Assembly: GCA_902620425.1 (NCBI GenBank)
Contig: CACNHX010000001.1
Location: forward strand, 93,471 to 157,470
Reading direction: 5' to 3'
DNA: 64,000 nt
DNA from: an uncultured Alphaproteobacteria bacterium
Lineage (GTDB): Bacteria; Pseudomonadota; Alphaproteobacteria; HIMB59; GCA-002718135
Shown here: in pieces, positions 22,686 through 47,655 of the stretch
Layout: each line of letters starts with the position of its first letter
Position numbering within the stretch: position 1 is the first letter of the stretch
Position numbers and translations under genes: made by a program
Notes under the pieces: generated by a model
What the model was told of the DNA's origin: nothing
What the model saw: only the letters and a program-made list of their open reading frames with translations
The model's database searches: none

Positions 22686-22788
22686 ATAGTAATATTTGTT
22701 AAATTTTAATAATTATTTCTTGATTATTTTTTGTTTCGAAATTACCGTTTTTTTATATTTGAAATATCAAATTTAGGAGGAAAACATT

Positions 22789-24045: not shown

Positions 24046-24064
24046 TAATTATATATAAAAAAAT

Positions 24065-24091
24065 AAGGGGATTTTATATCCCCTTTTTTTT
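24065..24091 (+). terminator. Rho-independent terminator/attenuator between the SBP and permease genes
   Basis: Stem aagggga (24065-24071) paired with tcccctt (24079-24085), a 7-nt loop, then a T-run to 24091. The next ATG is at 24103. Confidence 0.7.
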
Positions 24092-24102
24092 AATTTTGAA
24101 GT

Positions 24103-25880: not shown

Positions 25881-25971
25881 ATTTTTTATAGATTTAAAAT
25901 TTAATTTATTCTAAGATATATTAAGATTATAGTGATCTTAGCACTTGAAAAATCGCTCAAAGGAGGATGAA

Positions 25972-29028: not shown

Positions 29029-29889
29029 ATGAGTGCATTAATAGACTATATTCAAATAGAAATACACAAAACATATAATAAAAAATATTCCAAAAAGTAC
29101 ATAGAAGATAAATTAATTCCAATCATAAATTATATTTGCTCTAGTAAATCAAATAAATTCCTATTTGGAGGCTCTCAGGGTATTGGAAAGTCATCATTTA
29201 TTAATATTATCTCTAAAACTATAGAAAAATTTTATAATAAGAAAATTCTTTTGCTTAGTTTAGATAATTATTATTTATCAAGAAAACAACGATTACAATT
29301 ATCAAAAAAAATACATCAATTGTTAAAAACTCGAGGTGTTCCTGGAACACATGATGTTGAAAAATTATTTAAAAATATAAAACAATTCAATAAAAGTAAA
29401 TACCCTATCACAACCCCTCTATTTGATAAGTTGATTGATGATACGACTAAATCAACTAAAATAACTAAAACTAAATGTGATATTCTTTTCTTAGAAGGTT
29501 GGTGTTGTGGAAGTTCAGAAATTCCAAAAAAAATTCTTCATAAAAATATAAATAATTTAGAAAAAATTAAAGATCCAAAATATCAATGGAGAAATTTCTA
29601 TAATAATAAATTAAAATTAGAATACAAAAAATTATTTAAATTATTTGATGAACTTATTTTTTTGAAAACATCCTCTTTTGATAATGTTTTCAAATGGCGA
29701 TTAAAGCAGGAAAAAACTAATCAATCAAAAAACAAAAAATCAAAAAGAATGAATTCAAATGAAATTAAATATTTTGTTCAACATTATGAGAAGATAACTA
29801 AATGGATGATGAAGGATCTAAATAAAAAAGCTCAGATTGTTATTAAATTTGAGAAAAATCATAAAATTTCTTCAATAAATTTTAACTAG
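29029..29889 (+). CDS. P-loop kinase of the D-glycerate 3-kinase (GLYK) type
   Basis: 286 aa. P-loop GGSQGIGKSS, plus LSLDNYYLS, RGVPGTHDV, ILFLEGWCCG and VFKWRLKQE, in the same order as the plant/fungal GLYK motifs I recall. Confidence 0.6.
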   Translation: MSALIDYIQIEIHKTYNKKYSKKYIEDKLIPIINYICSSKSNKFLFGGSQGIGKSSFINIISKTIEKFYNKKILLLSLDNYYLSRKQRLQLSKKIHQLLKTRGVPGTHDVEKLFKNIKQFNKSKYPITTPLFDKLIDDTTKSTKITKTKCDILFLEGWCCGSSEIPKKILHKNINNLEKIKDPKYQWRNFYNNKLKLEYKKLFKLFDELIFLKTSSFDNVFKWRLKQEKTNQSKNKKSKRMNSNEIKYFVQHYEKITKWMMKDLNKKAQIVIKFEKNHKISSINFN

Positions 29890-30344
29890 AAAAAAATCCA
29901 TCTTTTAACTGAATTACAATATCTTTCAAATTCATCACCAAATTTATCTTTTAAATATTTTTCCTCTTCATATATTACAAAATTATTTAACCAAAAAAAT
30001 AATCCTATAGAACAAATAAAATACATAATGTTTTCAAAAGTAAGAAACATACCAAAATGAAATAAAACAAAACATAGATAAATTGGATTTCTAGAGTAAG
30101 CATAAATTCCAGTTTTTATAATTCTATTTGTTTCAGTTTGAGGAGGTAATTTTTCTTCATGTGCATTAAATGCATTTCTTGAGGAAAAAAATACAATTGG
30201 CATTAAAATTATAATTAATAATCCTAAAAGATTAAGAATATATAGCAGTGGGTATTTAGGAAAAATAAATTCACCTAAAATATAGGAGGCTATTAAAAGA
30301 TAGACTGAAATATAAAGTGGATTTCCTTTTACATCTGGCCCCAT
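29886..30344 (-). CDS. Small membrane methyltransferase-family protein (ICMT/PEMT-like)
   Basis: 152 aa with 4 hydrophobic spans. YAYSRNPIYLCF motif. Confidence 0.55.
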   Translation of the reverse strand: MGPDVKGNPLYISVYLLIASYILGEFIFPKYPLLYILNLLGLLIIILMPIVFFSSRNAFNAHEEKLPPQTETNRIIKTGIYAYSRNPIYLCFVLFHFGMFLTFENIMYFICSIGLFFWLNNFVIYEEEKYLKDKFGDEFERYCNSVKRWIFF

Positions 30345-31004
30345 TTAAAGCTCCTCTATTGCCTTACCTAAACTTTCATAATCACTAAATACATTCAAAG
30401 CTCCATTGTCAAATAATTCATTTGCATCTCTATCTGAATGCCAATGTTTTCCTGCAGTAAGACCAAATACCCTTACTCCTGCTGCAGTAGCTGCTTTAAC
30501 ACCTACTCCACTATCTTCGATAATGACTGACTCTTCTCTATTAAGTGAATTATCATTTAAAACTTTTAAGTATATATCTGGATCAGGTTTTGGTCTTTTA
30601 ACCATATCGAATGAGTAAACCTGATCTCTTAAAAAAAATTTATCTAACCCAACAAGCTTCAATCCATCAAGAATTCTATCCTTATTACTGTTGGATCCAA
30701 TAAAGTGATTTCTATCTGATTTACTAATATAATTTTTTGCTCCATCAACTAGTTTTAAATCCTTGGAATAAACTTCTGAAACAATATCAAATATTTCATT
30801 TGTAAATTTTTCTTTATTTTCAATTTTATATTTAGAAGATAATAAATCTATTACTTCAACAGTTTTTTTTCCAGCATATTTATAAAATTGCTCCTCTTTT
30901 ATAGTTTTATCAAATTTACTAAAATATTTAGAGAATGCTTTAGAGGCTAGCACTTCACTATCAACAACTACTCCATCAAAATCAAAAATTATATTTTTAA
31001 TCAT
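30345..31004 (-). CDS. HAD-superfamily hydrolase (beta-phosphoglucomutase/phosphatase-like)
   Basis: 219 aa. Motif I IIFDFDGVVVDSE and late motif IIEDSGVGVKAA. Confidence 0.8.
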   Translation of the reverse strand: MIKNIIFDFDGVVVDSEVLASKAFSKYFSKFDKTIKEEQFYKYAGKKTVEVIDLLSSKYKIENKEKFTNEIFDIVSEVYSKDLKLVDGAKNYISKSDRNHFIGSNSNKDRILDGLKLVGLDKFFLRDQVYSFDMVKRPKPDPDIYLKVLNDNSLNREESVIIEDSGVGVKAATAAGVRVFGLTAGKHWHSDRDANELFDNGALNVFSDYESLGKAIEEL

Positions 31005-31008
31005 TATT

Positions 31009-32109
31009 TTAAATTTCTGTCTTTCTATATTCTGATTTCTCTAACCAATGAGGATTAATCTCGATACCCCAACCAGGAGTATCTTCAATTTTAACCATTC
31101 CATTAGATATTTTAAAAGGATCACCTAAAAATAAATTCTGTTGCCATGGATAATAATCTTTACCTTCAATTGAAAATTCAAGATAGGGACCTGAATTATT
31201 TATTGCTTTTAAAAAATGCATTGTACAAATTGTTACTAAAGATAAATTAGCTGTATGTGGAGTACATATAAAACCACCTTTTTCAATAATTTTCGCAACC
31301 TTCAAAGCTTTTGTTAATCCTCCCATGTACATAACATCTGGCTGAAAAATATTTACAATTTTTCTGTTAACCATATCTCTCCAAATTCTCAGATCACAAT
31401 CTTGTTCTCCCCCAGTAACATCTATCTTCAAACTATCAGTAACTTTCTTAGTTTCTTCTGGTTTCCAGTAAGGACAAGGTTCTTCAAAATGAGTAACATC
31501 ATTATCTTCTAAAAGTTTCCCAATTTCTATTGCCTGAAAAGAGTTATAACAACTGTTTGCGTCGACCATCTTAATTACACTTTTATCTAGAGTCGAATTT
31601 ATTGTTTTTACTATACTAGGCGTTCTTCCTTCCCATTCATCAACTCCCCTTCCACATTCAGAGCCAACTCTAAATTTGAATGCATCAACACCCTTTTCAT
31701 CAAAGAGTTTTTTAAATCTATTTGCTTCATCATCTGGTGAAATATCTCTTTTCATCGATGATCCATAAATTCTTAAATTTCCTGGGGATCCTCCTATCAA
31801 TGAAACTACCGGCTTACTTTCAATTTTACCTTTCAAATCCCATAATGCCGTATCTAAACCAGCAATTGCACGTAAAAGATATGACCCTGGAAATTTATGT
31901 TCTCTTTCAAAGATAAAATCTTCTAAATCATCGAAATCAAAATACTCTTTTCCTAAAACCCAGGGCGCTACTTGTTTATGAAAAATTTGTGCTGTAATAT
32001 CTGCATGATATGTTGACATTTGCCCATAACCAATTGAACCATCCTCAACTGTTATTTTTACAAAACTTACATAAGGTTTTGTGAATGTTTCAAGTTTAAC
32101 TATTTTCAT
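31009..32109 (-). CDS. Enolase-superfamily enzyme (mandelate racemase/muconate-lactonising family, sugar-acid dehydratase-like)
   Basis: 366 aa. Metal-ligand motifs in canonical order: KMVDANSCY, HFEEPC, VTGGEQD. Confidence 0.75.
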   Translation of the reverse strand: MKIVKLETFTKPYVSFVKITVEDGSIGYGQMSTYHADITAQIFHKQVAPWVLGKEYFDFDDLEDFIFEREHKFPGSYLLRAIAGLDTALWDLKGKIESKPVVSLIGGSPGNLRIYGSSMKRDISPDDEANRFKKLFDEKGVDAFKFRVGSECGRGVDEWEGRTPSIVKTINSTLDKSVIKMVDANSCYNSFQAIEIGKLLEDNDVTHFEEPCPYWKPEETKKVTDSLKIDVTGGEQDCDLRIWRDMVNRKIVNIFQPDVMYMGGLTKALKVAKIIEKGGFICTPHTANLSLVTICTMHFLKAINNSGPYLEFSIEGKDYYPWQQNLFLGDPFKISNGMVKIEDTPGWGIEINPHWLEKSEYRKTEI

Positions 32110-32112
32110 AAA

Positions 32113-33726
32113 TTAAATCTTATTTAAATCCTCAATAATAAATTTACTTCCAAGATTAGCAAGCATCATTACAGGGGCATTTATATTGCCAGAAGTAATA
32201 TTTGGAAAAACAGATGCATCAGCAATCCAAAGATTCTCCATTCCATGAACTTTTAATCTTTCAGAAACAACTCCTTTTTTAGGATCTTCATCCATTTTAC
32301 AAGTACCACAAGGGTGATATATAGAAACTGCATTAGATTTAAAGTGATCAATCATTTCTTCTTCAGTAGCATTTAAAAGATCATGCGTAACACTTTCATT
32401 TCTTATTTTTTTTATACTATTTGTATTCGCCAAAACTTGAGAAAAATTAATTGCGCATTTCACATCATATATATCTTCTTCATGTGATAGAAAATTTGGA
32501 TCAATCAATGGAGCATCTTCAAAATTAGGAGAGTTCAATGCAACTCTACCCAAACTTTTTGGTCGACAAGAATTATAACCAATAATAAAACCATTAAATT
32601 TGTCAGTTTTTAGAAGAGGTCTTTTATTTTTATGAGTGATAGAATAAGTCAACGGATTGAAATATATCTGCAAGTTGGGATAATGATGTTTTGAATTCCA
32701 ATTTACATATCCCCCAGACTGATTAATACTTAGTGATAATGGTCCTTTCCTATTATAAATATATTTTAATACAGAAGTAATTCTGCCTGGCCAAGTTCCT
32801 AACGATTTATTTAGTGAATGATGATGAGTTTTAAATAAATAATCTAACCCAAGATGATCCTGAAGATTTCTTCCAACATTAGAATTATCAATTATTATTT
32901 CTTTATCAAATTTTTTTAAATGTTCTTTATCTCCAATACCAGAATGCATTAACAAATAAGGTGTCATTATAGAACCAGAACATAAAATTGCTCCATGAGA
33001 TAATTGTATGATTTGTTCTATTGATTTATTTTGAATTTTAATACCAGTAATTTTTTTATCTTTAATTATTAAATTTTTAACTTGAGTATTGTCTAATATT
33101 GTAAGTCTTGGATTTTTTAATACAGGCTTTAAAAATACTTTTGATGATGAATGCCTAGTACCATTGTAAGTATTAATATTATAATGACCTACTTGATTTT
33201 CGACTGATGTAGTTAAATTTGTATTTTTTTTAATACCAATTTCATTACTAGCATTAAAAAAATATTCTAAAATTGGATGATGATGCTTACTTACATTATT
33301 TACTGGAATCTTTTCTTTTGTTAGAAATTCTTTATCATGATTTATTTGTTGCTCCATAGAACTGTATACTTTTTTTATATTTTCAAAACTCCATTCCTTA
33401 TTGCTACCCCAATTTTCATAATCTGTTTCTAATCCTCTTGCATAGACCATTGCATTTATTGAGCCAGAGCCACCTAAAACTTTACCTCTCGGATAATATA
33501 TTTGCCTATTGAATAAATTATCTTGTTTTTCTGAATAGAAGTTCCAATTAATTTTTTTATTATAAAATGTCATTCCATAACCAAGAGGAACGTCAATAAT
33601 AGGATTGTTATCTTTAGGCCCAGCCTCAATAAGGGCTATATTAAAATTAGTTTTAGTCAGAAGTTTATTTGCTATTATACTTCCTGCAGAACCTGCTCCA
33701 ATAATTGCTATATCAATATTATTCAA
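32113..33726 (-). CDS. GMC-family FAD oxidoreductase (choline/sugar dehydrogenase-like)
   Basis: 537 aa. IAIIGAGSAGSIIANKL, GGSGSINAMVYARG and C-terminal IYHPCGTCKM. TTG start 1 nt after the upstream stop. Confidence 0.85.
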   Translation of the reverse strand: MNNIDIAIIGAGSAGSIIANKLLTKTNFNIALIEAGPKDNNPIIDVPLGYGMTFYNKKINWNFYSEKQDNLFNRQIYYPRGKVLGGSGSINAMVYARGLETDYENWGSNKEWSFENIKKVYSSMEQQINHDKEFLTKEKIPVNNVSKHHHPILEYFFNASNEIGIKKNTNLTTSVENQVGHYNINTYNGTRHSSSKVFLKPVLKNPRLTILDNTQVKNLIIKDKKITGIKIQNKSIEQIIQLSHGAILCSGSIMTPYLLMHSGIGDKEHLKKFDKEIIIDNSNVGRNLQDHLGLDYLFKTHHHSLNKSLGTWPGRITSVLKYIYNRKGPLSLSINQSGGYVNWNSKHHYPNLQIYFNPLTYSITHKNKRPLLKTDKFNGFIIGYNSCRPKSLGRVALNSPNFEDAPLIDPNFLSHEEDIYDVKCAINFSQVLANTNSIKKIRNESVTHDLLNATEEEMIDHFKSNAVSIYHPCGTCKMDEDPKKGVVSERLKVHGMENLWIADASVFPNITSGNINAPVMMLANLGSKFIIEDLNKI

Positions 33727-33727
33727 A

Positions 33728-34750
33728 TTAGAATGTTTGTGTTACTTTAGTTAAATATCTAGGATTGTCTGGATCTAATCCCTTTTCAAAAGAGTAATTA
33801 ACTATCCATGGATAAAATTTTGATAGAACTATAATTGGATCTAACTCTATCATATCATTAGGGCTATATCTAAGTTTAGTGTTAGAGTTTATATCATAGG
33901 TTATTTCATAGTGAAGATTAGTTAATGAAATAATTTGACTAGCATCTTTTGTTACTATCTTCCCACTTTTGTCTCTAAGTGAGATTGTAAATAATTTGAA
34001 TGAGTTTTGTATCAAGCTTTTTGGCCCATGCATTACTTCAGCACTACTGAAAGGTTCTATCATTTCTTGACATAACTCTTTAAACTTTAAAGATATTTCA
34101 TTAGAAATTGCATATCCAACACCTCTACTAATTATGTATCCATTACTTATGGTTTTATCTAATATATTTGGATTCCATTGATTTTGATTATCTAAAATTA
34201 AATGATCACTTAACTTTTCAATTTGTTTATTAATATCTTTTTTATTAAGAGTATTAAAAACAAGCTTTAAAATTATCAATAAAGACAAAACAAATGTTTT
34301 TGTCGCAGCAACACTTTTTTCTTCTCCAGCATTTATATCAAAAAAATAATTGGATGTGTTTGCAATTGGGCTATTTAAGTTATTACTTATTAAAATAGTC
34401 TTTGCTCTCATTTTTTGTACCATTTTATGACATTCAACCAAATCTTCACTTTTTCCTGATTGAGAAATAATGAAAACTAATGCTCTCGAAAAATTAAATT
34501 TTGATTCTTCTAAAGTTATTATAGATGGAGGCATGCTGTATGTTGGTAGACCAAGATATTTTGCAAACATATAAGATAAATACAAAGCAGCACAATCTGA
34601 AGTACCTCTTGCTACAGTAACAACATAATCAATTTTTTTTTCTGATATTAAACTTGATATTTCCTGGTAATTATTTTTATCATTTAAGATAAAATGATTA
34701 ATTTTATTTGGAATTGAGAGTGCTTCCGATAAAACTTTAGAACTAGACAT
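33728..34750 (-). CDS. Double-SIS-domain sugar-phosphate deaminase/isomerase (NagB-II / AgaS-like)
   Basis: 340 aa with two SIS-like halves (VARGTSDCAA..., IISQSGKSEDL). It overlaps nagA by 8 nt. Confidence 0.7.
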   Translation of the reverse strand: MSSSKVLSEALSIPNKINHFILNDKNNYQEISSLISEKKIDYVVTVARGTSDCAALYLSYMFAKYLGLPTYSMPPSIITLEESKFNFSRALVFIISQSGKSEDLVECHKMVQKMRAKTILISNNLNSPIANTSNYFFDINAGEEKSVAATKTFVLSLLIILKLVFNTLNKKDINKQIEKLSDHLILDNQNQWNPNILDKTISNGYIISRGVGYAISNEISLKFKELCQEMIEPFSSAEVMHGPKSLIQNSFKLFTISLRDKSGKIVTKDASQIISLTNLHYEITYDINSNTKLRYSPNDMIELDPIIVLSKFYPWIVNYSFEKGLDPDNPRYLTKVTQTF

Positions 34751-35837
34751 TAATTTTCTTTCCTCTTAAATAAACTTCTTTAAGATTAAATTCTTTATCT
34801 AAAATAAGAAAATTACTTAAAAAATTTTTTTGAATTACACCGACATTGTCTAGATTCATATATTTAGAAGCATTATAACTAGTTAAAGCGACTGCTTCTT
34901 CTAATGAAAAATTCATTGATATTAAATTTTTAAAAGTTTGATCCATAGTAACAATACTTCCTGCTAAAGTACCTTCAGACTTAATTTTTACTGAATGATT
35001 TTCTTTTTTTATATTATTTTTTGCAAAAATATATTCTCCATCATTCATTCCGCTAGCGTTAATAGAATCTGTTATCGCATAAAGACCAGGAATACATTTT
35101 TTTGCAATTTTTATTGCTTCTTTACTAACATGAATATTATCGCAAATTATTTCAGCATATTTTCCTTTTGAAAGAGCAGCTGATAAAACTCCTGGGGATC
35201 TATGATCATTACCAGACATAGCATTATACAAATGTGTAAAACCAATTTCATGATCTGTCATAATTTTTTCACAGCAATCAAAGTCTGCCAAAGTGTGGCC
35301 AAATTGAATCTTAATATTTAGCTCCACTAAATCATTTATAAATTCTTGCATTCCATCAATTTCTGGGGCTAAGGTAATGATTTTTACATCGGCAATTTCA
35401 AGAATTTTTTTTATAAACTCTAAAGATGGTTTCTCAGTTAAATTTGGTTGAGCGCCAAGTTTATTAGGATTAATAAAAGGTCCTTCTAAATGAACTCCAA
35501 GGATATTATTACCATTATCTTTCTTTATTTCATTAAATCCTTTTAACGCTGAAATAGTATTTTCTAAGGTATTGGTCCAAGTAGTTGGCATTATTGAAGT
35601 GGTACCATGTCGTAAATGATACTTAGACATTTCAATAATTGATTGTGAGCCCTCCATTACATCAAAACCATTACCACCATGACAATGGAGATCAATAAAA
35701 CCAGGAATTATAATATTATTATAATTATCAGAGTCCTTAATTTTTAAGTCACTAATTTTTTCACTAAAATATACATCACCAATATAGGAAGAATTATAAT
35801 TAATAATTTTTCCACTAACTTTATTTTGATCAGTCAT
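34743..35837 (-). CDS. nagA: N-acetylglucosamine-6-phosphate deacetylase
   Basis: 364 aa. PGFIDLHCHGGNGFD and HLEGPFINP. Confidence 0.85.
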   Translation of the reverse strand: MTDQNKVSGKIINYNSSYIGDVYFSEKISDLKIKDSDNYNNIIIPGFIDLHCHGGNGFDVMEGSQSIIEMSKYHLRHGTTSIMPTTWTNTLENTISALKGFNEIKKDNGNNILGVHLEGPFINPNKLGAQPNLTEKPSLEFIKKILEIADVKIITLAPEIDGMQEFINDLVELNIKIQFGHTLADFDCCEKIMTDHEIGFTHLYNAMSGNDHRSPGVLSAALSKGKYAEIICDNIHVSKEAIKIAKKCIPGLYAITDSINASGMNDGEYIFAKNNIKKENHSVKIKSEGTLAGSIVTMDQTFKNLISMNFSLEEAVALTSYNASKYMNLDNVGVIQKNFLSNFLILDKEFNLKEVYLRGKKINV

Positions 35838-35892
35838 CTAAACTTATTATCTTATATAGTAATTTGTTGATTTTTAAAAAAATTAAAAAAAC

Positions 35893-36621
35893 TTATAAAT
35901 GAGGATTAATCTTACTAAATTTTTTCTCTAATTTGTCATTATTTCTTTTAGCATTTGGCATATTTACACTGATATAGAATGGAAACAATTTTTCATTTTT
36001 TAAGATATTTGCAACTTCAATTAAAATTGAATTTAAAATAAAAGATCCTGTAATTGTTGAAGCTGGTCCAACCATGTTATCTTTAATATTTATAATTGCA
36101 TCACCAGGTGGAATCTTATTATCGATGAATATATCCGTTATTTCAAATAATCTTTTATTCAATTTAGATAGAGGAGCTTGTTTTGAGTATTTTACAGATG
36201 TTAGTGAAATAGTTTTTATTTTCTTTTTCTTAGCAATCAAAGCTGCTTCAACTGGAGCGTGATTGACACCTGAATTAGATACAATCATCAATATATCTTT
36301 GCTAGTAATTTTATATTTAGCTAGAGCTTTTTTTGCAATATTTGGAGTTCTTTCTAAAGCAGTGGCCTTTCTTGCTCCTTTTTTAAAACTGAGATCATCA
36401 TCTCTTATTGGACATGCGGCAGCAAAACCACCTGCTCTATGAAATGATTCTTCTCCGAGTAATCTAGAGTGTCCAGTTCCAAAAATATATAACTGCCCAC
36501 CTTTTTTATATGATTTACTAATTAACTTAGCACACTGTAAGAATTTTTTTTCTTCTTCTTTTAATATCTTCTTTAAAATTGAATTAATTTTTGATGAATA
36601 GGATCTCGTTAATTTACTCAT
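35893..36621 (-). CDS. Single-SIS-domain protein (UPF0309-like), no HTH
   Basis: LYIFGTGHSRLLGEE and MIVSNSGVNHAPVE. The ORF track starts at a TTG (36636). I prefer the ATG at 36621 (MSKLTRSY...). Confidence 0.6.
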   Translation of the reverse strand: MSKLTRSYSSKINSILKKILKEEEKKFLQCAKLISKSYKKGGQLYIFGTGHSRLLGEESFHRAGGFAAACPIRDDDLSFKKGARKATALERTPNIAKKALAKYKITSKDILMIVSNSGVNHAPVEAALIAKKKKIKTISLTSVKYSKQAPLSKLNKRLFEITDIFIDNKIPPGDAIINIKDNMVGPASTITGSFILNSILIEVANILKNEKLFPFYISVNMPNAKRNNDKLEKKFSKINPHL

Positions 36622-36639
36622 TTGAATTTTATACAAGAT

Positions 36640-36662
36640 GCTAGGGCAAATATTGCCCTAGC
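36640..36662 (-). promoter_or_regulatory. Intercistronic GC-rich stem-loop just downstream of the SBP gene
   Basis: gctagggcaa (36640-36649) paired with ttgccctagc (36653-36662), a near-perfect palindrome with no clear U-tail. It sits between the SBP stop (36675) and the next start. Confidence 0.6.
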
Positions 36663-36674
36663 AAAATAATATAA

Positions 36675-37886
36675 TTATTTGTATTCTTCTAACTCTTCAG
36701 CTGCTTCAGCTACTAGATCTGCAGCATCTCCTTCACCAAGAATTGCACCTTGGATCATAGAGTTCATAACAGTTTGAAAAGCTTTGTAGTCTACAAATAG
36801 TGGCTCTGGTCCACCATCGCCAATTGCATCAATAAACATCATCCAATAATCTTCATTGTATGGGGCTTCATTCCCAATTTGAGGATATTGCATAATTGGT
36901 GTTAGACCCCAATCAGTATCTAGACTGTATTGAGAGTCACCTGATGTAATTATACTAGCTAATTCCATTGCTTCTTTTTCAACACCTGTGTTTGAGAAAA
37001 CTGCAACACTATCAGTGATTAAAAGCGTACCCTGACTTCCTTGTGGTCCAGCTGGAATTCTAACTGTTTTAACATCTAGACCTTCCTTATGCTGACCTCT
37101 ACCCCAAGGTCCATTAATATACATAGCAATTTTTTCGTCATTAAATAGTTCTGTTAACTGAGATCTCTCCCAAGCTAAAGGACCTTCTTGAGCAACGTTT
37201 GCTAACTTTCCATAAAATTCTAATGTTTCAACAGTATTAGATGAATTCAAAGTTATTTCATTTGTCATTGGATCAATAACTTGTCCTCCATTACTGTATA
37301 AGTAGTTTAAGAATTGGTGCATAGTATTATCAAAATCTTTACCAGCTAGTCCAATTCCTGCTGCTCCATCAACATTTTTTGTTACAGCTTCAGCCATTGA
37401 ATATAATTCATCCCAAGTTTGAGGACCTTCACATGCAACACCTGCTTTTTCTAAAAGACCACAATTCATGAAAAGTGCTTTAGTTGAAAACGCATGAGGG
37501 AAACCCCAAGTTTTACCCATGTGTGTAACTGTGTTTAGGATACCCGGTTGATACATTGCTTTTTGAGAAGCAGGTATATTTGTTTCTAAAATATGTCCGT
37601 TTTCTGCAAGACCTTTTAGAGTTCTTGATCCAACATATGAAAATGCAACAGGATCACCTGCAATAGCAAGATTGATTACTTTATCTTGACATGTTCCCCA
37701 AGGAACAGCCTCTAGAGTTACAGTAACTCCAGGATTGTCTTCCATGTACTTATCAGCTATTTCAACATAATTAGGTCGAAGCTCACCGCCACAAAATACT
37801 CCGTGTACTTCAGCAGCATAAGTTTTGAAACCAACTAGTGAAAGTATAGCTATTGTAAGAAATGAAGATAGTTTTTTGAAATTCAT
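36675..37886 (-). CDS. Family-1 extracellular solute-binding protein (CUT1; probable chitobiose/GlcNAc-type by context)
   Basis: 403 aa. Signal peptide MNFKKLSSFLTIAILSLVGFKTYA. GGAGG SD (complement of 37891-37895). Confidence 0.8.
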   Translation of the reverse strand: MNFKKLSSFLTIAILSLVGFKTYAAEVHGVFCGGELRPNYVEIADKYMEDNPGVTVTLEAVPWGTCQDKVINLAIAGDPVAFSYVGSRTLKGLAENGHILETNIPASQKAMYQPGILNTVTHMGKTWGFPHAFSTKALFMNCGLLEKAGVACEGPQTWDELYSMAEAVTKNVDGAAGIGLAGKDFDNTMHQFLNYLYSNGGQVIDPMTNEITLNSSNTVETLEFYGKLANVAQEGPLAWERSQLTELFNDEKIAMYINGPWGRGQHKEGLDVKTVRIPAGPQGSQGTLLITDSVAVFSNTGVEKEAMELASIITSGDSQYSLDTDWGLTPIMQYPQIGNEAPYNEDYWMMFIDAIGDGGPEPLFVDYKAFQTVMNSMIQGAILGEGDAADLVAEAAEELEEYK

Positions 37887-37961
37887 AATTCCTCCATTTA
37901 AATATAAAAAAGAGATAACATTAACTGGCTCTATGAAGCAAGTTAGTTTTTGGGTATTTTT

Positions 37962-38801
37962 CTAGTTTTTTACCGCCCCAGAAGTAAGTCCAGCAACAAT
38001 ATATTTCTGTAGAAAAAGGAAAATTATTAAGACAGGGGCAATCCCAACAAGAGAGGCTGCCATCATTTCATTCCATTTGACTGTTGTGTAACCAATAAAT
38101 TCATACAGCCCTGAAGGGATAGGCATATATTCTTTTTTCTGATTAAATGTAATCGCAAATAAGAATTGTTGAGCATAAGATCCTATAAAAGCGTATATCC
38201 CAACAACTACCAGACCAGGTGTACTAAGAGGTGCGATTATGTGTCTGAGTATTTGTACTCTTGAAGCCCCATCTACAAAAGCTGCCTCTTCTAAATCTAT
38301 TGGTATTTTCTCAAAGTAAGACTTTAGCAACCAAATTGCAGTTGGAATTAAAAAAGCCACACCGGGAACAATCATAGCTTGATATGTATTTAGCAAACCA
38401 AATGTTCTTAATACTTTATAGAGAGGAATTAATAAAACTGCCCCTGAAAACATATTAATTGCTAATAAAATATAGAGTGAAGAATTTTTAAAAGGAAATT
38501 TAAAACGTGCATAAGAGTAAGCTGCAGGAATTACAAAAAGCAAAGTAATAATAGAAGTAACTGAGGCAAGAAAAAAACTATTAAAAATATATCGTGGAAG
38601 CATTGGTACTGTATTCCACATTTCTCGATAAGCCCAAAAAGATAAATCATCTGAATAAAATTGGTATGGCGAACGAAATAAATGATCTAAAGGTCGAAGC
38701 GATGCATAAAACATTTCGACAAAAGGCAAAAGAATAAAAATCATAAAGATTAATATTCCTAAATATAATAATATCTTTTCGTATATATTATATTTATCCA
38801 A
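37962..38801 (-). CDS. CUT1 sugar ABC permease, MalG-type, tandem copy A
   Basis: 279 aa. EAA loop DLEEAAFVDGASRVQILRHIIAPLS. TTG start (38801) 1 nt after the stop of copy B. Confidence 0.8.
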   Translation of the reverse strand: MDKYNIYEKILLYLGILIFMIFILLPFVEMFYASLRPLDHLFRSPYQFYSDDLSFWAYREMWNTVPMLPRYIFNSFFLASVTSIITLLFVIPAAYSYARFKFPFKNSSLYILLAINMFSGAVLLIPLYKVLRTFGLLNTYQAMIVPGVAFLIPTAIWLLKSYFEKIPIDLEEAAFVDGASRVQILRHIIAPLSTPGLVVVGIYAFIGSYAQQFLFAITFNQKKEYMPIPSGLYEFIGYTTVKWNEMMAASLVGIAPVLIIFLFLQKYIVAGLTSGAVKN

Positions 38802-38802
38802 T

Positions 38803-39642
38803 TTAGTTTTTTACCGCACCTGCGGTAAGTCCCTCAACTATATACTTTTGTAAAAATACAAATAATAATAAAACAGGCAACATTCCTACTAAAGCAGCTG
38901 CCATCATCTCATTCCATTTAACACTTTGATATCCTATAAATTCATATAACCCTGTTGGAATTGGCATATATTCTTTTTTCTGATTAAATGTAATCGCAAA
39001 TAAGAATTGTTGAGCATATGCACCTATAAATGCATAAATACCAACTACAACTAATCCAGGTGTACTTAAAGGAGCTATGATGTGTCTGAGTATTTGTACT
39101 CTTGAAGCCCCATCTACAAAAGCTGCCTCTTCTAAATCTATTGGTATTTTCTCAAAGTAAGACTTTAGCAACCAAATTGCAGTTGGAATTAAAAAAGCCA
39201 CACCAGGAATTATCATAGATTGATAACTATTTAATAAACCTAAAGTCCTTAAAAGTTTGTATAAAGGTATTAAAATTACTGCTCCTGAAAACATATTAAT
39301 TGCTAGGAGAACGTATAAGCTCGTATTCTTAGCTGGAAATTTAAAACGTGCGTATGCGTAGGCTGCAGGAATAACAAATATAAGAGTTAGTATAGCAACG
39401 CAGGAAGCCAGAAAAAAACTATTAAAAATATATCGTGGAAGCATTGGTACTGTATTCCACATTTCTCGATAAGCCCAAAAAGATAAATCATCTGAATAAA
39501 ATTGGTATGGTGAGCGAAATAAATGATCTAAGGGACGAAGCGATGCATAAAACATTTCAATAAAAGGCAAAAGAATAAAAGTCATGAAGACAAAGATGCC
39601 AAAATAGATCAATATTTTTTCAAAAGGATTATATTTATTCAT
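38803..39642 (-). CDS. CUT1 sugar ABC permease, MalG-type, tandem copy B
   Basis: The ORF track starts at a TTG (39669). The ATG at 39642 (MNKYNPFEK...) gives 279 aa, the same length and register as copy A, with an 8-nt overlap on the upstream gene. Confidence 0.8.
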   Translation of the reverse strand: MNKYNPFEKILIYFGIFVFMTFILLPFIEMFYASLRPLDHLFRSPYQFYSDDLSFWAYREMWNTVPMLPRYIFNSFFLASCVAILTLIFVIPAAYAYARFKFPAKNTSLYVLLAINMFSGAVILIPLYKLLRTLGLLNSYQSMIIPGVAFLIPTAIWLLKSYFEKIPIDLEEAAFVDGASRVQILRHIIAPLSTPGLVVVGIYAFIGAYAQQFLFAITFNQKKEYMPIPTGLYEFIGYQSVKWNEMMAAALVGMLPVLLLFVFLQKYIVEGLTAGAVKN

Positions 39643-40534
39643 GAGAAATTTTCTTATTAATTCTAGCAAGTAAAGCTAAGTAAAATCCTGCAAATAACAT
39701 TAGTAAAATCATTACGACTACGGCTCTAGCAGCACCTCTTCCAAATTTATAATTTCCTAATGCTTGTTTATAGGTGTCGATAATTAATGTAGTTGTTGAA
39801 CCTCTTGGCCCACCTTCAGTCAATATCCAAATTATTTCAAATGAGTTGAATGTCCAAATAGCAGATAGTAATGACATTGTAATAATGACAGGAGTGATTT
39901 GAGGTAATGTGATTTTAAAAAATCTATCCCATCTTGAAGCGCCATCACAATAAGCAGCTTCATATAAATCTCTTGGCACACCCTGCATTGCAGCTAGAAA
40001 GAAAACGGTTACCATTGGTGTTCCAACCCAAACATCGGCAATGATTGTAGAAATAAAGGCACTTTGTTTGTAAGCAAGAAATCCAAAAGGACCGTCCAAA
40101 ATACCAGTTCGCATACCTACACCTGCGATAATTCCAAAATACCCGTTATATAACCATAACCAGCCAAGCATACCAATTGCAATTGGAACTACCCATGGCG
40201 GCATTACAAGCACTCTGAAAATTGATCTTCCTTTTAAATTAGCATTAAGTAAAACAGCTCCAATTAAACCAATGATAAGTTTTAAAGAGACTGAAAAAAA
40301 CATCCAAACAAATGTTCTGGTCACTATTCCATTAAATTTTTTACTAGAAAACATTTTTTGATAATTTTCTAAGCCAACATAATCTTCTCCTGCTAAACTA
40401 GAATTTGTAAAAGATAATCTAATTGTTTCTAATAATGGCCAAGCAACAATAAGAATTATATAAATAGCAGCAGGAGCAATTAGTGCATATGCTATATATG
40501 TTTGGGCGGTATATGATTTTAATTTTTGATTCAT
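39635..40534 (-). CDS. CUT1 sugar ABC permease (MalF-type)
   Basis: 299 aa. EAA loop DLYEAAYCDGASRWDRFFKITLP. Confidence 0.85.
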   Translation of the reverse strand: MNQKLKSYTAQTYIAYALIAPAAIYIILIVAWPLLETIRLSFTNSSLAGEDYVGLENYQKMFSSKKFNGIVTRTFVWMFFSVSLKLIIGLIGAVLLNANLKGRSIFRVLVMPPWVVPIAIGMLGWLWLYNGYFGIIAGVGMRTGILDGPFGFLAYKQSAFISTIIADVWVGTPMVTVFFLAAMQGVPRDLYEAAYCDGASRWDRFFKITLPQITPVIITMSLLSAIWTFNSFEIIWILTEGGPRGSTTTLIIDTYKQALGNYKFGRGAARAVVVMILLMLFAGFYLALLARINKKISHE

Positions 40535-40539
40535 AATTA

Positions 40540-41685
40540 CTAATTTAATAGGGAGTCGAATTTATCCCAAGTGCTTGTTAAGTCAATTACTTTACCAGTA
40601 TTTCTAGCTTCATCAATTTTCATAGCAACAATTCCTGCCTCCATACATTCTATTACACCAACTGGTAATTCTTTATTATTTTTTAATAAATAATTGTTAA
40701 TGTCTTGAGCCATCATGCTATCTGCGCCATAATGACCTTTAATTTCTTTTCCAAAAGCTGCTCCATAATCTTCATCAATAAGTAAATTATTATTTTCATC
40801 ATGAGCTTTCATAAATCCTTTAACAAAATCTCCCTCAATCATTCCCGCAGATCCTATGACTGCAAATCTTCGAAATTCGTCTGGAACTTTCATATTAGTA
40901 TGAAAAGATAGTACTGCTTTATTTGCATATTCTATTATTGCTACTTGATGATCGACGATATCAGCATCACTATCAAAAACATTTGATTTTGACTCCCAAC
41001 CTTTTAGCCTGTCTTTTGTATATTGTTCATGAGAACCCTCTGGAAGATTTTCGGGTATAAAAGATCTTCTTGAACCAAAACTAGCAACTTTAATAGGTCT
41101 GCTCTTCGTAATCATTGAATAAAAGTCAATGTCATGACAACATTTTTCCAGCATAAAACCTCCAGAATATTTTTGTTTTCTTCTCCAGTTTCTCATAAAA
41201 AAAGCACCGTGCGAAGGTACGATATGTTCTGAAGCTTCAATCGATATTATATTTCCAATAGCATTTTGATCTAATAATTTTCTCACAGATCTTGCTTGCT
41301 GTGAATATCTTAAAACTAAGCCAACAATAATTCTTTCTTTGCCATATTCTTTTATTAATTTTGCTAACTCAAAAGTTTCTTGTTCGCTTATTACTATAGG
41401 TTTCTCAGCAAATATTTGTAATCCTGCTCTTAATCCAAGCTTAATATGATCTAAATGTAAATGATTGGGGGACCCAATCATTAACATATCTAGTTTCTCT
41501 CGATCCAACATTTCGTTTAAACTTGAATATGATTTATTTGGAAAAAAATTATTTTTCTCAGCAAAATCTTTACCTATTGGCTGAGGATCTACATAAGCAA
41601 CCATTTCAAAATTTGGATTAACTTTTGAAAATTCATTATAAACACCTGCTGTCCTACTCCCAAAACCGACTGCGCCTATTTTCAT
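40540..41685 (-). CDS. Gfo/Idh/MocA-family oxidoreductase
   Basis: 381 aa. MKIGAVGFGSRTAG and FAEKPIV. Same subfamily as 18702..19901 (shared WR..QKYSGG, SFGSR and HYGAD strings). Confidence 0.8.
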   Translation of the reverse strand: MKIGAVGFGSRTAGVYNEFSKVNPNFEMVAYVDPQPIGKDFAEKNNFFPNKSYSSLNEMLDREKLDMLMIGSPNHLHLDHIKLGLRAGLQIFAEKPIVISEQETFELAKLIKEYGKERIIVGLVLRYSQQARSVRKLLDQNAIGNIISIEASEHIVPSHGAFFMRNWRRKQKYSGGFMLEKCCHDIDFYSMITKSRPIKVASFGSRRSFIPENLPEGSHEQYTKDRLKGWESKSNVFDSDADIVDHQVAIIEYANKAVLSFHTNMKVPDEFRRFAVIGSAGMIEGDFVKGFMKAHDENNNLLIDEDYGAAFGKEIKGHYGADSMMAQDINNYLLKNNKELPVGVIECMEAGIVAMKIDEARNTGKVIDLTSTWDKFDSLLN

Positions 41686-41703
41686 ATTTATTTTACTTTA
41701 ACA

Positions 41704-43566
41704 TTAAAAATTGTGATATCGCCAGCCTAATTTTTTTAAAAAATCCATAGAATGTAGAAGTGCTGAACGAAATTCTATCCATTTTCTTGAAATTTTTCCT
41801 TTCCATGCAACTTCTGATAAAGTTGCTAATCTTGGATTGATCATTTGATCAAAAAATTTTTTATCTGTAATTGTCTCTGACCACAGTTGACCTTGTAACC
41901 CTTTTATCAATTCTGATTTATTTAAATCTTTTATTGGGTCCCATTCATAAATATCTTTTACCTCTATAGTTGCAGCCCAACAAATACCTCTTTCTTCAGT
42001 TGAATTATTATAAGCCATATCAAAATATGTTTTTTGACCGGGACAAAGTATTGTTTCAAATCCCTTATTTGTAGTTTCTTTTGCAACATCTGAATGCTCC
42101 CATGAAAAGATCAAACATGATTTATCAATTTTTCCAGCACTTCCACCCACACCATGATCGATATGAGGAGACACTGCCGCCTCATTCCATGCAGCTGTTC
42201 TTTTATTTTTTGATTTTAGAAAATCTATTAAAAAATTCATATAGTAATCTTGATATTCCTCTTGTGATTTAATATTATTTTTTTTCATAAACTCGATAAT
42301 TGCTGGAGAACCTTCCCAGGCATTACTTGGTCTTTCATCAACGCCAACATGAATTACATCATATGAGAAAATATCACTTACTTCATTCAACATATCTTTT
42401 AAAAAAGTTATAGTTTTTTCTAAGGAAGGATTTATTGTATTATTCTTATACGAACCAACATCTTCACTAACTATATTTGAAGACTGTTCCCTAAGGTCTG
42501 GCATAATTTCTAGTAATGCCCAAGAATGTGCTGGTAAATCAATTTCAGGCATAATTTCGATATTTAATTTTTTTGCATATATAATTAAATCTTTGATATC
42601 TTCCTGTGAGTAATATCCGCCGTATTTATCATAACCACTTCCGTACAATGGTGGTATTTTAAAATTATATCCTCTGTATCCCCCATTTAATGCTAGATCT
42701 GGATATTTTCTAATTTCAATTCTCCACGCTTCGTTATCTGTTAAATGCCAATGAAATCTATTAAGCTTAAATAATGCCATGTAATTAAATAAACGTTTGA
42801 TTTCATTAATAGTATAGAATTGTCTTGCACAATCGAGATGCATTCCTCTCCATTGATATTTTGGATTATCGTGAATTGTACAAATTGGAAGCTTTGTTTG
42901 ATAGAAATCAATTAAATGAACTAAAGATATAAGACCATATAGCTTTCCACCATAAGTATTGAATTTAATCTCAATATTATCTTTTGTTATATGCATAAAA
43001 TATTGATCGTTTAATAACTGATCATCTTTTTCAAAAAAAATTGGAAATCCTTTTTCAGAAGTAAAATTAATATCCAATTTGTAAATAACATTTTGCAAAT
43101 TAGAAATAATTTCAATTTCCGTATTTAGATTAAATGTTTTATTTTCAATATTTACAAATTCATTTTGTAAATAAATTTTTTCTGGCTCAGGAATAATAGG
43201 TATAAAATTTTTTGTTTTTAAATCTTCATAAGTTTTCTTTTTAATTGGTTTTTCAAATATCAAATCTGAAACATTTATATTTAATTTACTATTGTTTAAT
43301 GTATCAATAATGAAAATACCTTCCGGACCACACGAAAGGTTGAAGTTACCAATTTTAGGAATTTGTAAATCTAATAAAATTGTATTTTTTTTTATAGATA
43401 ACTCGTAATAACGTCCAATTTGTTTTGTTATTTCACCTCCTGATATAGATTTTATTGAATAAACTAATGAGAAACACAGTTTCAAATTTGAAACTACTAA
43501 TTTATCATCAAGAATAATTTTTAATTTATTTTCATTTGTAAAAGATATATTAATTTGATTAGTCAT
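41704..43566 (-). CDS. GH20 beta-N-acetylhexosaminidase (cytoplasmic chitobiase-like)
   Basis: 620 aa. GMHLDCARQF, FHWHLTDNEAWR, and the catalytic D-E pair in IHVGVDE. No signal peptide. Confidence 0.85.
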   Translation of the reverse strand: MTNQINISFTNENKLKIILDDKLVVSNLKLCFSLVYSIKSISGGEITKQIGRYYELSIKKNTILLDLQIPKIGNFNLSCGPEGIFIIDTLNNSKLNINVSDLIFEKPIKKKTYEDLKTKNFIPIIPEPEKIYLQNEFVNIENKTFNLNTEIEIISNLQNVIYKLDINFTSEKGFPIFFEKDDQLLNDQYFMHITKDNIEIKFNTYGGKLYGLISLVHLIDFYQTKLPICTIHDNPKYQWRGMHLDCARQFYTINEIKRLFNYMALFKLNRFHWHLTDNEAWRIEIRKYPDLALNGGYRGYNFKIPPLYGSGYDKYGGYYSQEDIKDLIIYAKKLNIEIMPEIDLPAHSWALLEIMPDLREQSSNIVSEDVGSYKNNTINPSLEKTITFLKDMLNEVSDIFSYDVIHVGVDERPSNAWEGSPAIIEFMKKNNIKSQEEYQDYYMNFLIDFLKSKNKRTAAWNEAAVSPHIDHGVGGSAGKIDKSCLIFSWEHSDVAKETTNKGFETILCPGQKTYFDMAYNNSTEERGICWAATIEVKDIYEWDPIKDLNKSELIKGLQGQLWSETITDKKFFDQMINPRLATLSEVAWKGKISRKWIEFRSALLHSMDFLKKLGWRYHNF

Positions 43567-43579
43567 AACTAGTAATTAT

Positions 43580-44647
43580 ATGAGTTTTAAAGATATATTT
43601 AATATAGACGCAGAAGTAAAGGAAAGTGCTCATGCAAGAGTAAATTTAATTGGTGAACATACCGATTATACTGGTGGATATGTCATGCCTACACTTTTAT
43701 CTTTTAAAAATACCATTGAGATATCTCAAAATAATTCTAATGAATTCACAGTTTATTCTCAACATTTTAAAGAAAAAAAAACATTCAATGATTTCAAAAA
43801 ATCAATAAACAATGAGTGGGTTGATTATATAAAAGGTTGTTTGCATATTTTTTTTGATGAAAATAAGATTTCATCTAGATTTTTAAACATTTTTATTTCA
43901 TCTGATATACCTTTAGAAAGAGGTATTTCATCATCTTCAGCATTGTGTGTTGCTACACTAAAAGCACTTAATACTTTTTTTGAAACAAAAATCAAAGATC
44001 CAGAAATTGCAAAATTAGCAAAGAAAGTAGAATTCAACTATATAGGTGTTTCTGGTGGAATAATGGATCAAATGGTCTCTTCTATTGGTATTCATGGCAA
44101 AGCATTTTTTATGAATTGTAAGAATTTAGAATACGAACTTATTAATTTTCCAGAAAATTGGAAATTTTGTTTGATTGACTCTGAAGTACAACGAAATTTA
44201 AGAGATAGCTCTTATAATGAAAGATTTGCTGAACTCCAAGAGGCTGAAAAAAAACTTGGTGTAGAATATTTAGGTGAAGTTAAAAAAGAAAATTTTCAAA
44301 CAAATAAATTTGAAAATAATACTATAGCAAAAAGAGCAAAGCATGTAGTTTTTGAAAATGATAGAGTGATTAATGCGAAAAAAAATTTAATAGAAAATAA
44401 TATTCAGGAGTTTGGAAAATTAATGAATGAAAGTCACGTATCATATTCTAAAGATTTTGAAGCATCTACTTTAGATGTTGATTTAATTGTTCAGAGATCG
44501 GTTGCATGTGGTGCTCTTGGCGCCAGATTGACTGGTGGTGGATTTGGTGGTTTTACAGTTTCATTAATTGAAAGAAATAATTATAGTAATTGGTATAGTA
44601 AAATATTAAATTTTTATCCTGCTGAAAAGATCTTCGAAGTCAATTAG
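43580..44647 (+). CDS. galK: Galactokinase-family GHMP sugar kinase
   Basis: 355 aa. Galactokinase signature ARVNLIGEHTDYTGGYVMP and GHMP ATP loop PLERGISSSSAL. Confidence 0.75.
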   Translation: MSFKDIFNIDAEVKESAHARVNLIGEHTDYTGGYVMPTLLSFKNTIEISQNNSNEFTVYSQHFKEKKTFNDFKKSINNEWVDYIKGCLHIFFDENKISSRFLNIFISSDIPLERGISSSSALCVATLKALNTFFETKIKDPEIAKLAKKVEFNYIGVSGGIMDQMVSSIGIHGKAFFMNCKNLEYELINFPENWKFCLIDSEVQRNLRDSSYNERFAELQEAEKKLGVEYLGEVKKENFQTNKFENNTIAKRAKHVVFENDRVINAKKNLIENNIQEFGKLMNESHVSYSKDFEASTLDVDLIVQRSVACGALGARLTGGGFGGFTVSLIERNNYSNWYSKILNFYPAEKIFEVN

Positions 44648-45720: not shown

Positions 45721-45806
45721 TTTTAGTTTATTAATTAATATTTAAATTTGTGTAAATTATAAATTATAGTTAAAAATTAAAAAATGGTTGAGAAATAAGT
45801 GATTAA

Positions 45807-46637: not shown

Positions 46638-46652
46638 AGAATTTATCTATAA

Positions 46653-47654: not shown

Positions 47655-47655
47655 T

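Follow-up and report, generated by a model that had tools for sequence, protein, structure and literature searches.

A conserved, regulator-free amino-sugar locus of HIMB59/AEGEAN-169 Alphaproteobacteria, probably composed of modules that are independent elsewhere

How should a bacterial gene array be read in which enzymes of N-acetylglucosamine (GlcNAc) degradation run without a break into a flavoprotein oxidoreductase and an enolase-superfamily enzyme: as a single pathway, or as several modules that share a strand? The array in question lies on the minus strand at 29886-43566 of a 64,000-nt stretch of DNA (hereafter the window; contig CACNHX010000001.1 of assembly GCA_902620425.1, positions 93,471 to 157,470; G+C ~30%) from an uncultured alphaproteobacterium of the HIMB59/AEGEAN-169 lineage. 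It comprises 13 open reading frames (ORFs) in a row, whose neighbours overlap or are separated by at most 75 nt. In order, these encode a GH20 hexosaminidase, a Gfo/Idh/MocA oxidoreductase (Gfo), one MalF-type and two MalG-type ATP-binding cassette (ABC) permeases, a substrate-binding protein (SBP), a UPF0309 protein, NagA, a NagB-II-type protein, a GMC oxidoreductase, an MR/MLE enzyme, a HAD hydrolase and a PEMT/ICMT-family protein. Families were assigned by Pfam and NCBIfam profile scans (cut-offs quoted below are the NCBIfam model thresholds), and the domain inventory covered window ORFs of at least 120 amino acids (aa), minus one embedded overlapping frame. The coordinates and spacing given in the original prediction were reproduced, and Pfam and NCBIfam bore out each of its gene families. 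We consider it rather likely that the array is a lineage-specific super-operon of HIMB59/AEGEAN-169, in which four or more modules, each free-standing in other genomes, were joined without regulators. The locus looks like a regulator-less, kinase-less composite amino-sugar locus, and not like a new pathway. No regulator gene (NagC, NagR, NagQ or other) was found within or adjoining the array in the Pfam/NCBIfam inventory; regulators of the GntR, DeoR or ROK type accompany orthologous modules in other organisms.

The arrangement itself is real. We searched 21 window proteins by tblastn against 69 loci from species-representative genomes. The relatives were the metagenome-assembled genome HIMB59-LRMED-199 and GORG single-cell genomes under the labels Alphaproteobacteria or Pelagibacteraceae, which, together with the low G+C, assigns the window to HIMB59/AEGEAN-169. 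The block from PEMT to GH20, together with a divergent galactokinase gene, has the same order and orientation in every sufficiently long locus, and this synteny reaches more than 60 HIMB59/AEGEAN-169 genomes with enzyme identities as low as 52-66%. Thus, the array is conserved throughout the lineage and is no chance run of same-strand ORFs. The SBP protein is identical in long-read reef-water assemblies and one NCBI assembly, and 537 assembly-collection blocks list it. In the long-read reef contigs L001-L010, GH20, Gfo, NagA, GMC, MR/MLE and galactokinase genes are often called as two fragments. The same genes are intact in the window and in the NCBI assembly, and the fragment positions are inconsistent, which suggests long-read frameshift errors and not pseudogenes.

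Whether the oxidative enzymes belong to the amino-sugar enzymes was addressed through their occurrence in other genomes. The GMC flavoprotein oxidoreductase (32113-33726; PF00732, PF05199) lies 1 nt behind the NagB-II gene and is choline-dehydrogenase-like, scoring 391 bits against PRK02106, below the cut-off of 605. The MR/MLE enzyme (31009-32109) follows after 3 nt and matches four structural-genomics structures (3t8q, 3u4f, 3t9p and 3tcs) at 1e-148 to 1e-157, 3t8q reaching 1.3e-157. Candidate metal-ligand and acid/base motifs occur at VDANS 182, FEEPC 208, GGEQD 233, FQPDV 255 and TPHTAN 283, and these columns are invariant across orthologues. The orthologues, 53-59% identical, are encoded on roseobacter, Shinella and Paraburkholderia replicons, with a GMC gene directly upstream in Roseovarius, Pseudosulfitobacter and Phaeobacter, and nearby in Shinella and Ruegeria. 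Other neighbours there are aldehyde dehydrogenases (ALDHs), PotD-type ABC or major facilitator superfamily (MFS) transporters, FAD oxidoreductases, and LysR or MocR regulators. NCBIfam places these partners near choline dehydrogenase, betaine-aldehyde/PuuC-type dehydrogenases and L-pipecolate oxidase, pointing to a context of amine or amino-alcohol catabolism, and no nag gene was found near the roseobacter and Shinella pairs. The pair of the array shares the upstream GMC with these modules, but sits behind NagB-II and has neither the ALDH nor the LysR/MocR regulator. In Haladaptatus, the MR/MLE gene is isolated. Our literature search on 3T8Q, 3U4F, 3T9P, 3TCS and the R. pomeroyi MR/MLE locus returned nothing relevant.

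A metagenome scan with a diverse MR/MLE alignment as query extended this picture to 80 loci of 97-57% identity. Only at MR/MLE identities of 73% or more, in loci of the AEGEAN-169 type, do NagB-II and NagA lie upstream of GMC. At 63% identity, GMC is still adjacent, with ABC permeases upstream and an MFS transporter downstream. Soil, lake and marine loci of 57-62% identity include at least 13 with an adjacent GMC gene, the partners being LysR, ALDH, an SBP_bac_5 ABC system or other genes, and no nag, GH20, Gfo or UPF0309 genes were found in these GMC-adjacent loci. Because the junction is confined to AEGEAN-169-type loci among the 80, the joining of NagB-II to GMC is a lineage-specific fusion, and GMC plus MR/MLE is an independent and widespread module. 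In the array, this pair would oxidise an alcohol or aldose and then perform alpha-proton chemistry on the acid so formed. It probably acts on something other than an amino sugar, and was presumably just fused downstream.

The original prediction had instead interpreted the two enzymes as a branch in which amino sugars or products of lytic polysaccharide monooxygenases (LPMOs) are oxidised at C1 and then dehydrated, a claim that finds no support in the orthologous pairs, which occur elsewhere without nag genes. Stated in full, such an integrated pathway would serve one substrate class: GMC would oxidise GlcNAc, glucosamine (GlcN), chitobiose or LPMO-type products at C1, and MR/MLE would dehydrate or deaminate the acid, in parallel to NagA and NagB-II. 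This is consistent with the tight same-strand linkage kept across the clade and with the MR/MLE profile matches, the top ones being acid-sugar dehydratases (all far below their cut-offs; the best, gluconate/galactonate dehydratase, 131 vs 750 bits), the candidate catalytic motifs being kept. In addition, a plus-strand P-loop kinase gene of the D-glycerate 3-kinase family (29029-29889; PDB relatives 1odf, 6ckg and 7xpc; no Pfam hit) abuts the 3' end of the array, convergent with PEMT, and would suit a non-phosphorylative sugar-acid route. However, the GMC-MR/MLE pairs of many lineages never occur with nag genes and keep the amine-type company described above. Moreover, the characterised Ong pathway of Pseudoalteromonas, which has the marine setting and amino-sugar catabolism in common with the array, uses OngB deacetylase, OngC deaminase and KdgK on GlcNAc1A, and neither GMC nor MR/MLE is part of it (PMC9537276). 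By domain inventory, the window encodes no Ong-type enzymes, no 2-keto-3-deoxygluconate (KDG) kinase, no 2-keto-3-deoxy-6-phosphogluconate (KDPG) aldolase no second amidohydrolase and no deacetylase for unphosphorylated N-acetyl-glucosaminate. We regard the integrated pathway as distinctly improbable.

Several observations nonetheless weigh against our preferred reading of the array as a composite of modules around amino-sugar import. The nearest profile models of MR/MLE, sub-threshold as they are, represent just the acid-sugar dehydratases that an oxidative branch needs. The junction between NagB-II and GMC (1-36 nt) is kept within the clade across family-level divergence, so that co-transcription is likely and functional coupling possible. 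No GlcNAc kinase was found in the window, which leaves the canonical pathway incomplete as encoded here, and the PDB matches of the SBP are weak.

The first module of this composite comprises GH20, Gfo, MalF, both MalG proteins and the SBP. The GH20 beta-N-acetylhexosaminidase (41704-43566; PF00728, 3.4e-97) is closest to the Vibrio beta-N-acetylglucosaminidase Nag2 among PDB entries (6ezr, 3.8e-87) and has its catalytic D-E pair (GVDE) at residue 408. It has no N-terminal signal while the SBP does, in agreement with the cytoplasmic location proposed for it. Gfo (40540-41685, assigned by Pfam) follows after 18 nt and heads the ABC cassette; its PDB and NCBIfam matches are generic only (inositol dehydrogenase, 8qc2, YjhC and levoglucosan dehydrogenase). 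After 5 nt comes the MalF/UgpA-type permease (39635-40534; UgpA 116.9 bits, MalF 100.6 bits in NCBIfam), which overlaps the first MalG-type permease (38803-39669; NCBIfam MalG, 124 bits). The start of the latter is probably Met10 (39642), judging from the alignment with its paralogue. The second MalG-type permease (37962-38801; NCBIfam) lies 1 nt further on, and the two copies align as tandem duplicates of 87% identity. MalG is single-copy in four loci of the clade (L036, L069, L071 and L074) and in the Rhizobium cassette described below. The original prediction was right about the two permease families but overlooked that the two MalG genes are a tandem duplication that is polymorphic in the clade. 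The SBP (36675-37886; SBP_bac_1, 1.8e-29), 75 nt behind the second MalG, carries a signal peptide and belongs to the CUT1 family, its best PDB match being weak (3e-21).

We propose that a beta-linked N-acetylhexosamine (HexNAc) di- or oligosaccharide enters the cell through this CUT1 ABC system. Chitobiose is the most likely candidate, given that the closest match of GH20 is a Vibrio enzyme active on chitooligosaccharides. Cytoplasmic GH20 would then free HexNAc from the imported saccharide, and Gfo, a fixed companion of the transporter, would have an accessory action on the imported amino sugar. There is no ABC ATPase inside the array, and the nearest MalK/UgpC-type ATPase (25945-27051, plus strand; ABC_tran, OB_MalK and TOBE_2 domains) is the last gene of an adjacent sugar operon that contains a sulfatase. 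In place of a dedicated ATPase, this protein probably energises the importer.

Related cassettes in other bacteria argue for a link to amino sugars. On pRL11 of Rhizobium johnstonii, the order is Gfo-permease-permease-SBP-UgpC, with identities to the array of 50% for Gfo, 55% for MalF, 56% for MalG and 40% for the SBP, and the pRL11 UgpC is 55% identical to the window ATPase at 25945-27051. Gfo orthologues (44-52% identity) always adjoin the same ABC cassette or ROK, BadF or GNAT genes. A GNAT gene follows the Gfo-ABC cassette in Sinorhizobium (S. meliloti) and also lies beside it in Agrobacterium. In Paracoccus saliphilus (p242883), CutC-Gfo-permeases-SBP-UgpC-NagB is divergent from DeoR-phosphosugar isomerase-ROK kinase-AgaZ-like-NagA, and in Duffyella Gfo lies opposite a BadF-type kinase and a ROK regulator. 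Being embedded in such clusters, the cassette is linked to amino sugars. While the Rhizobiaceae and Paracoccus cassettes (pRL11, pSymB and p242883) share the Gfo-MalF-MalG-SBP order with the array, they have one MalG and their own UgpC, often with GNAT, where the array has two MalG and no ATPase. The ROK or BadF kinase that neighbours the Paracoccus and Duffyella cassettes is exactly the piece missing here. The literature searched showed no biochemical characterisation of the Rhizobiaceae and Paracoccus cassettes. We also considered the galactosamine-induced cluster of S. meliloti (SMb21216-21221) as an equivalent and rejected it: its genes include a PfkB kinase and a SIS isomerase and belong to another system.

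The same genomic contexts bear on an alternative in which the imported compound is a peptidoglycan fragment (GlcNAc-N-acetylmuramic acid or GlcNAc-1,6-anhydro-N-acetylmuramic acid) handled by the same modules, with Gfo acting on an anhydro- or otherwise modified amino sugar and UPF0309 serving as a MurQ-type etherase or eliminase. On pSymB of S. meliloti, the Gfo-ABC-GNAT genes lie ~5 kb from a RidA-MurR/RpiR-short-chain dehydrogenase/reductase (SDR)-GH20-M81 peptidase-MFS cluster, and many Rhizobiaceae replicons carry Gfo and GH20 genes within 10-20 kb of each other. The longest-coverage NCBIfam match of Gfo is levoglucosan (1,6-anhydroglucose) dehydrogenase, and YjhC is among its PDB matches, but these similarities are weak (E 1e-7 to 1e-11). 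In addition, the best match of GH20 is chitooligosaccharide-active, and the window has no AnmK, MurK or AmgK-type kinase and no peptidase.

The cassette also behaves as a unit in sequence comparisons. Against L063, a distant genome, nucleotide identity is 86-96% over the region that begins in the 3' part of Gfo and runs through the SBP and only 55-75% in the flanks, whereas against close genomes of the L036 type the reverse is seen, with the cassette at ~70% and the flanks at 91-98%. The transporter cassette (36675-41685) therefore recombines independently of its flanks, with breakpoints inside Gfo and at a hairpin behind the SBP (loci L036, L063, L066 and L075). This GC-rich hairpin (36639-36663, minus strand; 11-bp stem, z = -5.7) directly follows the SBP stop codon, at the boundary between a transport half of the array and an enzyme half. 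All 54 distinct variants of the intergenic sequence keep it, and their stems show compensatory changes. As it lacks a T-tract, it is more likely a transcript-stability or attenuation element than a full terminator. All five SBP genes of the window (7388-8377, 14520-15860, 22789-24045, 36675-37886 and 60031-61134) are followed by such a hairpin (z -2.5 to -6.7, in a genome of ~30% G+C) and the internal non-SBP genes of the array are not, a pattern that resembles a genome-wide rule for expressing the genes of ABC operons at different levels. An Rfam scan of the window, hairpin included, gave no match, and a sigma-70 promoter scan gave fewer matches than in shuffled sequence. The 13 genes, co-directional and closely spaced, may be co-transcribed.

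Behind the hairpin lies the second module, with UPF0309, NagA and NagB-II. NagA (34743-35837) passes the TIGR00221 equivalog cut-off (251.6 vs 225.65 bits) and carries the HCHGG and HLEGPF motifs. The GlmS-isomerase-like NagB-II protein (33728-34750) overlaps NagA by 8 nt and is a probable glucosamine-6-phosphate (GlcN-6-P) deaminase, scoring 229.6 bits against NF046059 (cut-off 430). Its best PDB relatives are 3fj1 (8e-50) and 8eol (1.6e-42; deposited as glucosamine-6-phosphate deaminase), the closest proteins being a Ruegeria phosphosugar isomerase and the 8eol chain. NagA and NagB-II would take GlcNAc-6-phosphate (GlcNAc-6-P) to fructose-6-phosphate (Fru-6-P) and ammonia. With GH20 and the cassette context, these matches support the view that the first half serves the import of a HexNAc di- or oligosaccharide and GlcNAc-6-P catabolism, much as the original prediction had it for chitobiose, with the missing kinase as its gap. 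One clade member (L059) has a full-length GlmS (602 aa; 1490-3298) between the SBP and UPF0309, a further tie of the UPF0309-NagA-NagB segment to the GlcN-6-P/Fru-6-P node. In this genome, a catabolic array therefore contains a gene of amino-sugar biosynthesis.

The UPF0309 protein (35893-36621) is a SIS_2 phosphosugar protein that scores 232.9 bits against PRK02947 (cut-off 135), 38-53 nt behind the SBP and 55 nt before NagA. Its start is most likely an internal Met at 36621 (242 aa), as in all homologues. The original prediction had placed it in the right family but missed its homology to NagS. PDB matches are 3cvj (6e-40) and NagS itself (9eol, 6e-20), and the identity to NagS (SCO4393) is 29.5% over 200 aligned residues. 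H51, R62, E90 and D174 align with the essential NagS residues H53, R64, E94 and D179 and are invariant among clade homologues. The phosphate-binding serines of NagS are kept. S91 is replaced by T87, and N228 lies outside the aligned region. NagS is a GlcNAc-6-P dehydratase giving 6P-chromogen I and reported to be limited to Streptomycetaceae; its clade is delimited by an identity of at least 58.7% and by linkage to dmdR1, and homologues of ~30% identity outside Streptomycetaceae were inactive on GlcNAc-6-P (PMC12680351). Both proteins thus share the UPF0309/SIS_2 family, the essential residues and a genetic association with NagA, but the array protein falls outside the NagS clade in identity and genomic context, having no linkage to dmdR1. 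We therefore do not class it as NagS. Our literature search on UPF0309 itself returned nothing relevant.

Where NagS is linked to dmdR1, the UPF0309 gene of the array, like those of Bacillales and Rhizobium, is co-operonic with nagA and nagB. The order is GntR-NagB-II-like-NagA-UPF0309 in Rhizobium sp. NLR16a and nagE(PTS)-nagA-nagB-GntR-UPF0309 in Planococcus and Priestia, where PTS stands for phosphotransferase system, and these loci (L086, L094 and L095) sit on plasmids. UPF0309 hence turns up repeatedly, across distant phyla, as the fourth gene of nagA/nagB operons. Its repeated placement there, in three phyla, argues for an action on a phospho-amino sugar, and the protein may be an accessory enzyme related to NagS and MurQ. 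The placement of the family next to MurQ (PMC12680351) is what a peptidoglycan-fragment substrate would lead one to expect, but the UPF0309 genes of Firmicutes stand in plain GlcNAc-PTS operons. Taken with the Gfo evidence above, we consider a peptidoglycan fragment an unlikely substrate.

In our preferred reading of the array as an amino-sugar composite, one step is left to another enzyme, that of forming GlcNAc-6-P. The original prediction had noted the absence of a ROK- or BadF-type NagK and of a PTS, and this holds for the whole 64-kb window, in which no ROK or BadF kinase, PTS, PfkB/KDG kinase or KDPG aldolase was found among ORFs of at least 120 aa. The P-loop kinase at 29029-29889 was rejected as the missing GlcNAc kinase on account of its D-glycerate 3-kinase family; a PHROGs scan of it gave no match. 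It is the sole plus-strand gene between the array and a HAD-GlpD unit, an adjacency that is kept in several relatives. The GlcNAc-6-P-forming kinase would be encoded at another place in the genome or, with lower probability, be a divergently encoded enzyme of the galactokinase family.

This last gene (43580-44647, plus strand) was overlooked when the locus was described as 13 genes, a count that is correct for the minus strand. Its start codon and that of GH20 are 13 nt apart, and the spacer is 11-31 nt in all relatives, to 61% identity. The encoded GHMP kinase passes the galactokinase equivalog (TIGR00131, 269.9 vs 226.65 bits), contains PF10509, and has the galactose-binding signature RVNLIGEHTDY and the motif GGIMDQ. 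It could be part of the system if a HexNAc-beta-Gal glycan were split into HexNAc and galactose, the latter entering the Leloir pathway, or if hexosamine were phosphorylated at C1 and passed to a mutase. The conservation of the divergent GalK-GH20 pair in all relatives is compatible with either, as are the report that the clade has galKMT (PMC10308909) and the presence of a PGM/PMM-family mutase in the window at 735-2141. On the other hand, the enzyme scores as an ordinary galactokinase with a canonical signature and is far closer to bacterial and archaeal GalK structures (1pie, 6e-58; 2cz9, 2.5e-56) than to human GalNAc kinase (1e-29), neither galT nor galM is present at the locus, and adjacency is weak evidence in a streamlined genome. 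A role of GalK in the system thus seems improbable. Broader still would be an undescribed amino-sugar route that needs neither a ROK/BadF kinase nor a PTS and is formed by GalK and the 13 genes together, in which Gfo, UPF0309 and the GHMP kinase replace canonical steps and GMC with MR/MLE processes a second product. Such a route might proceed by anomeric phosphorylation and a mutase, or by redox-assisted opening or elimination on an anhydro- or 3-O-substituted HexNAc; we find it decidedly unlikely.

The last two genes of the array form a separable fourth module. The HAD-IA sugar-phosphatase-like hydrolase (30345-31004; HAD_2, 3.4e-28) lies 4 nt behind MR/MLE and has 6-phosphogluconate phosphatase as its best NCBIfam match (102.5 bits, below the cut-off of 211). 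The PEMT/ICMT-family membrane methyltransferase (29886-30344; PF04191, 9.2e-13) follows with a gap of 0 nt. In divergent genomes of the L063 type, the two are split from MR/MLE by three opposite-strand genes for an alpha/beta-hydrolase, a thiamine diphosphate-dependent enzyme and a luciferase-like monooxygenase (L063 15567-19242; also L066, L069, L070 and L078), so the 13-gene operon is not universal. Even where detached, HAD and PEMT are always paired. The same divergent subclade has an aldehyde dehydrogenase after GalK (L063 481-1953), which we rejected as an orthologue of the roseobacter-module ALDH since an identity of only 32-36% is not diagnostic.

Proteobacterial GlcNAc/chitobiose utilisation loci of the Shewanella type combine NagA, NagB-II and GH20 with a dedicated transporter, and we take the name of the NCBIfam model NagB_SO3506 to point to that pathway. 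The array likewise encodes a cytoplasmic GH20, NagA and a GlmS-like, probable NagB-II deaminase, with a predicted transporter for their substrate. Unlike these loci, it has no NagK, PTS or NagR/NagC/NagQ, its CUT1 importer has two MalG and no ATPase, and Gfo, UPF0309 and the fused, unrelated downstream genes are added. AEGEAN-169/HIMB59 is an abundant surface-ocean lineage, for which a clade-wide, regulator-free HexNAc locus would widen the range of scavenged dissolved carbon and nitrogen to include amino sugars. The published metabolic reconstruction of AEGEAN-169 does not mention GlcNAc, chitin or hexosaminidase (PMC10308909), and no paper linking HIMB59 to chitin or GlcNAc was found in the literature searched. 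The locus also offers clear genomic handles on several enzymes: the transporter-linked Gfo, UPF0309, and the GMC and MR/MLE pair, with four orphan crystal structures among the MR/MLE relatives. More generally, genome streamlining can fuse unrelated modules, and adjacency in such genomes may mislead pathway inference.

Other loci of the window touch on sugars as well. The plus-strand operon at 18702-27051, which ends with the MalK-type ATPase, encodes a Gfo/Idh/MocA protein, a 499-aa ORF without Pfam hit (19885-21384), a sulfatase, an SBP and two permeases, and may be a sulfated-sugar utilisation system. The mutase at 735-2141 (minus strand) is a four-domain PGM/PMM-family phosphohexomutase that adjoins a UDP-glucose dehydrogenase; the AEGEAN-169 clade has been reported to lack phosphoglucomutase (PMC10308909). 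Finally, a minus-strand cluster at 44644-49613, upstream of GalK, encodes a TauD enzyme similar to TmpA and gamma-butyrobetaine dioxygenase, an SDR, IolG (above cut-off), a Gfo protein and a further SDR, and looks like a system for inositol or quaternary-amine catabolism.

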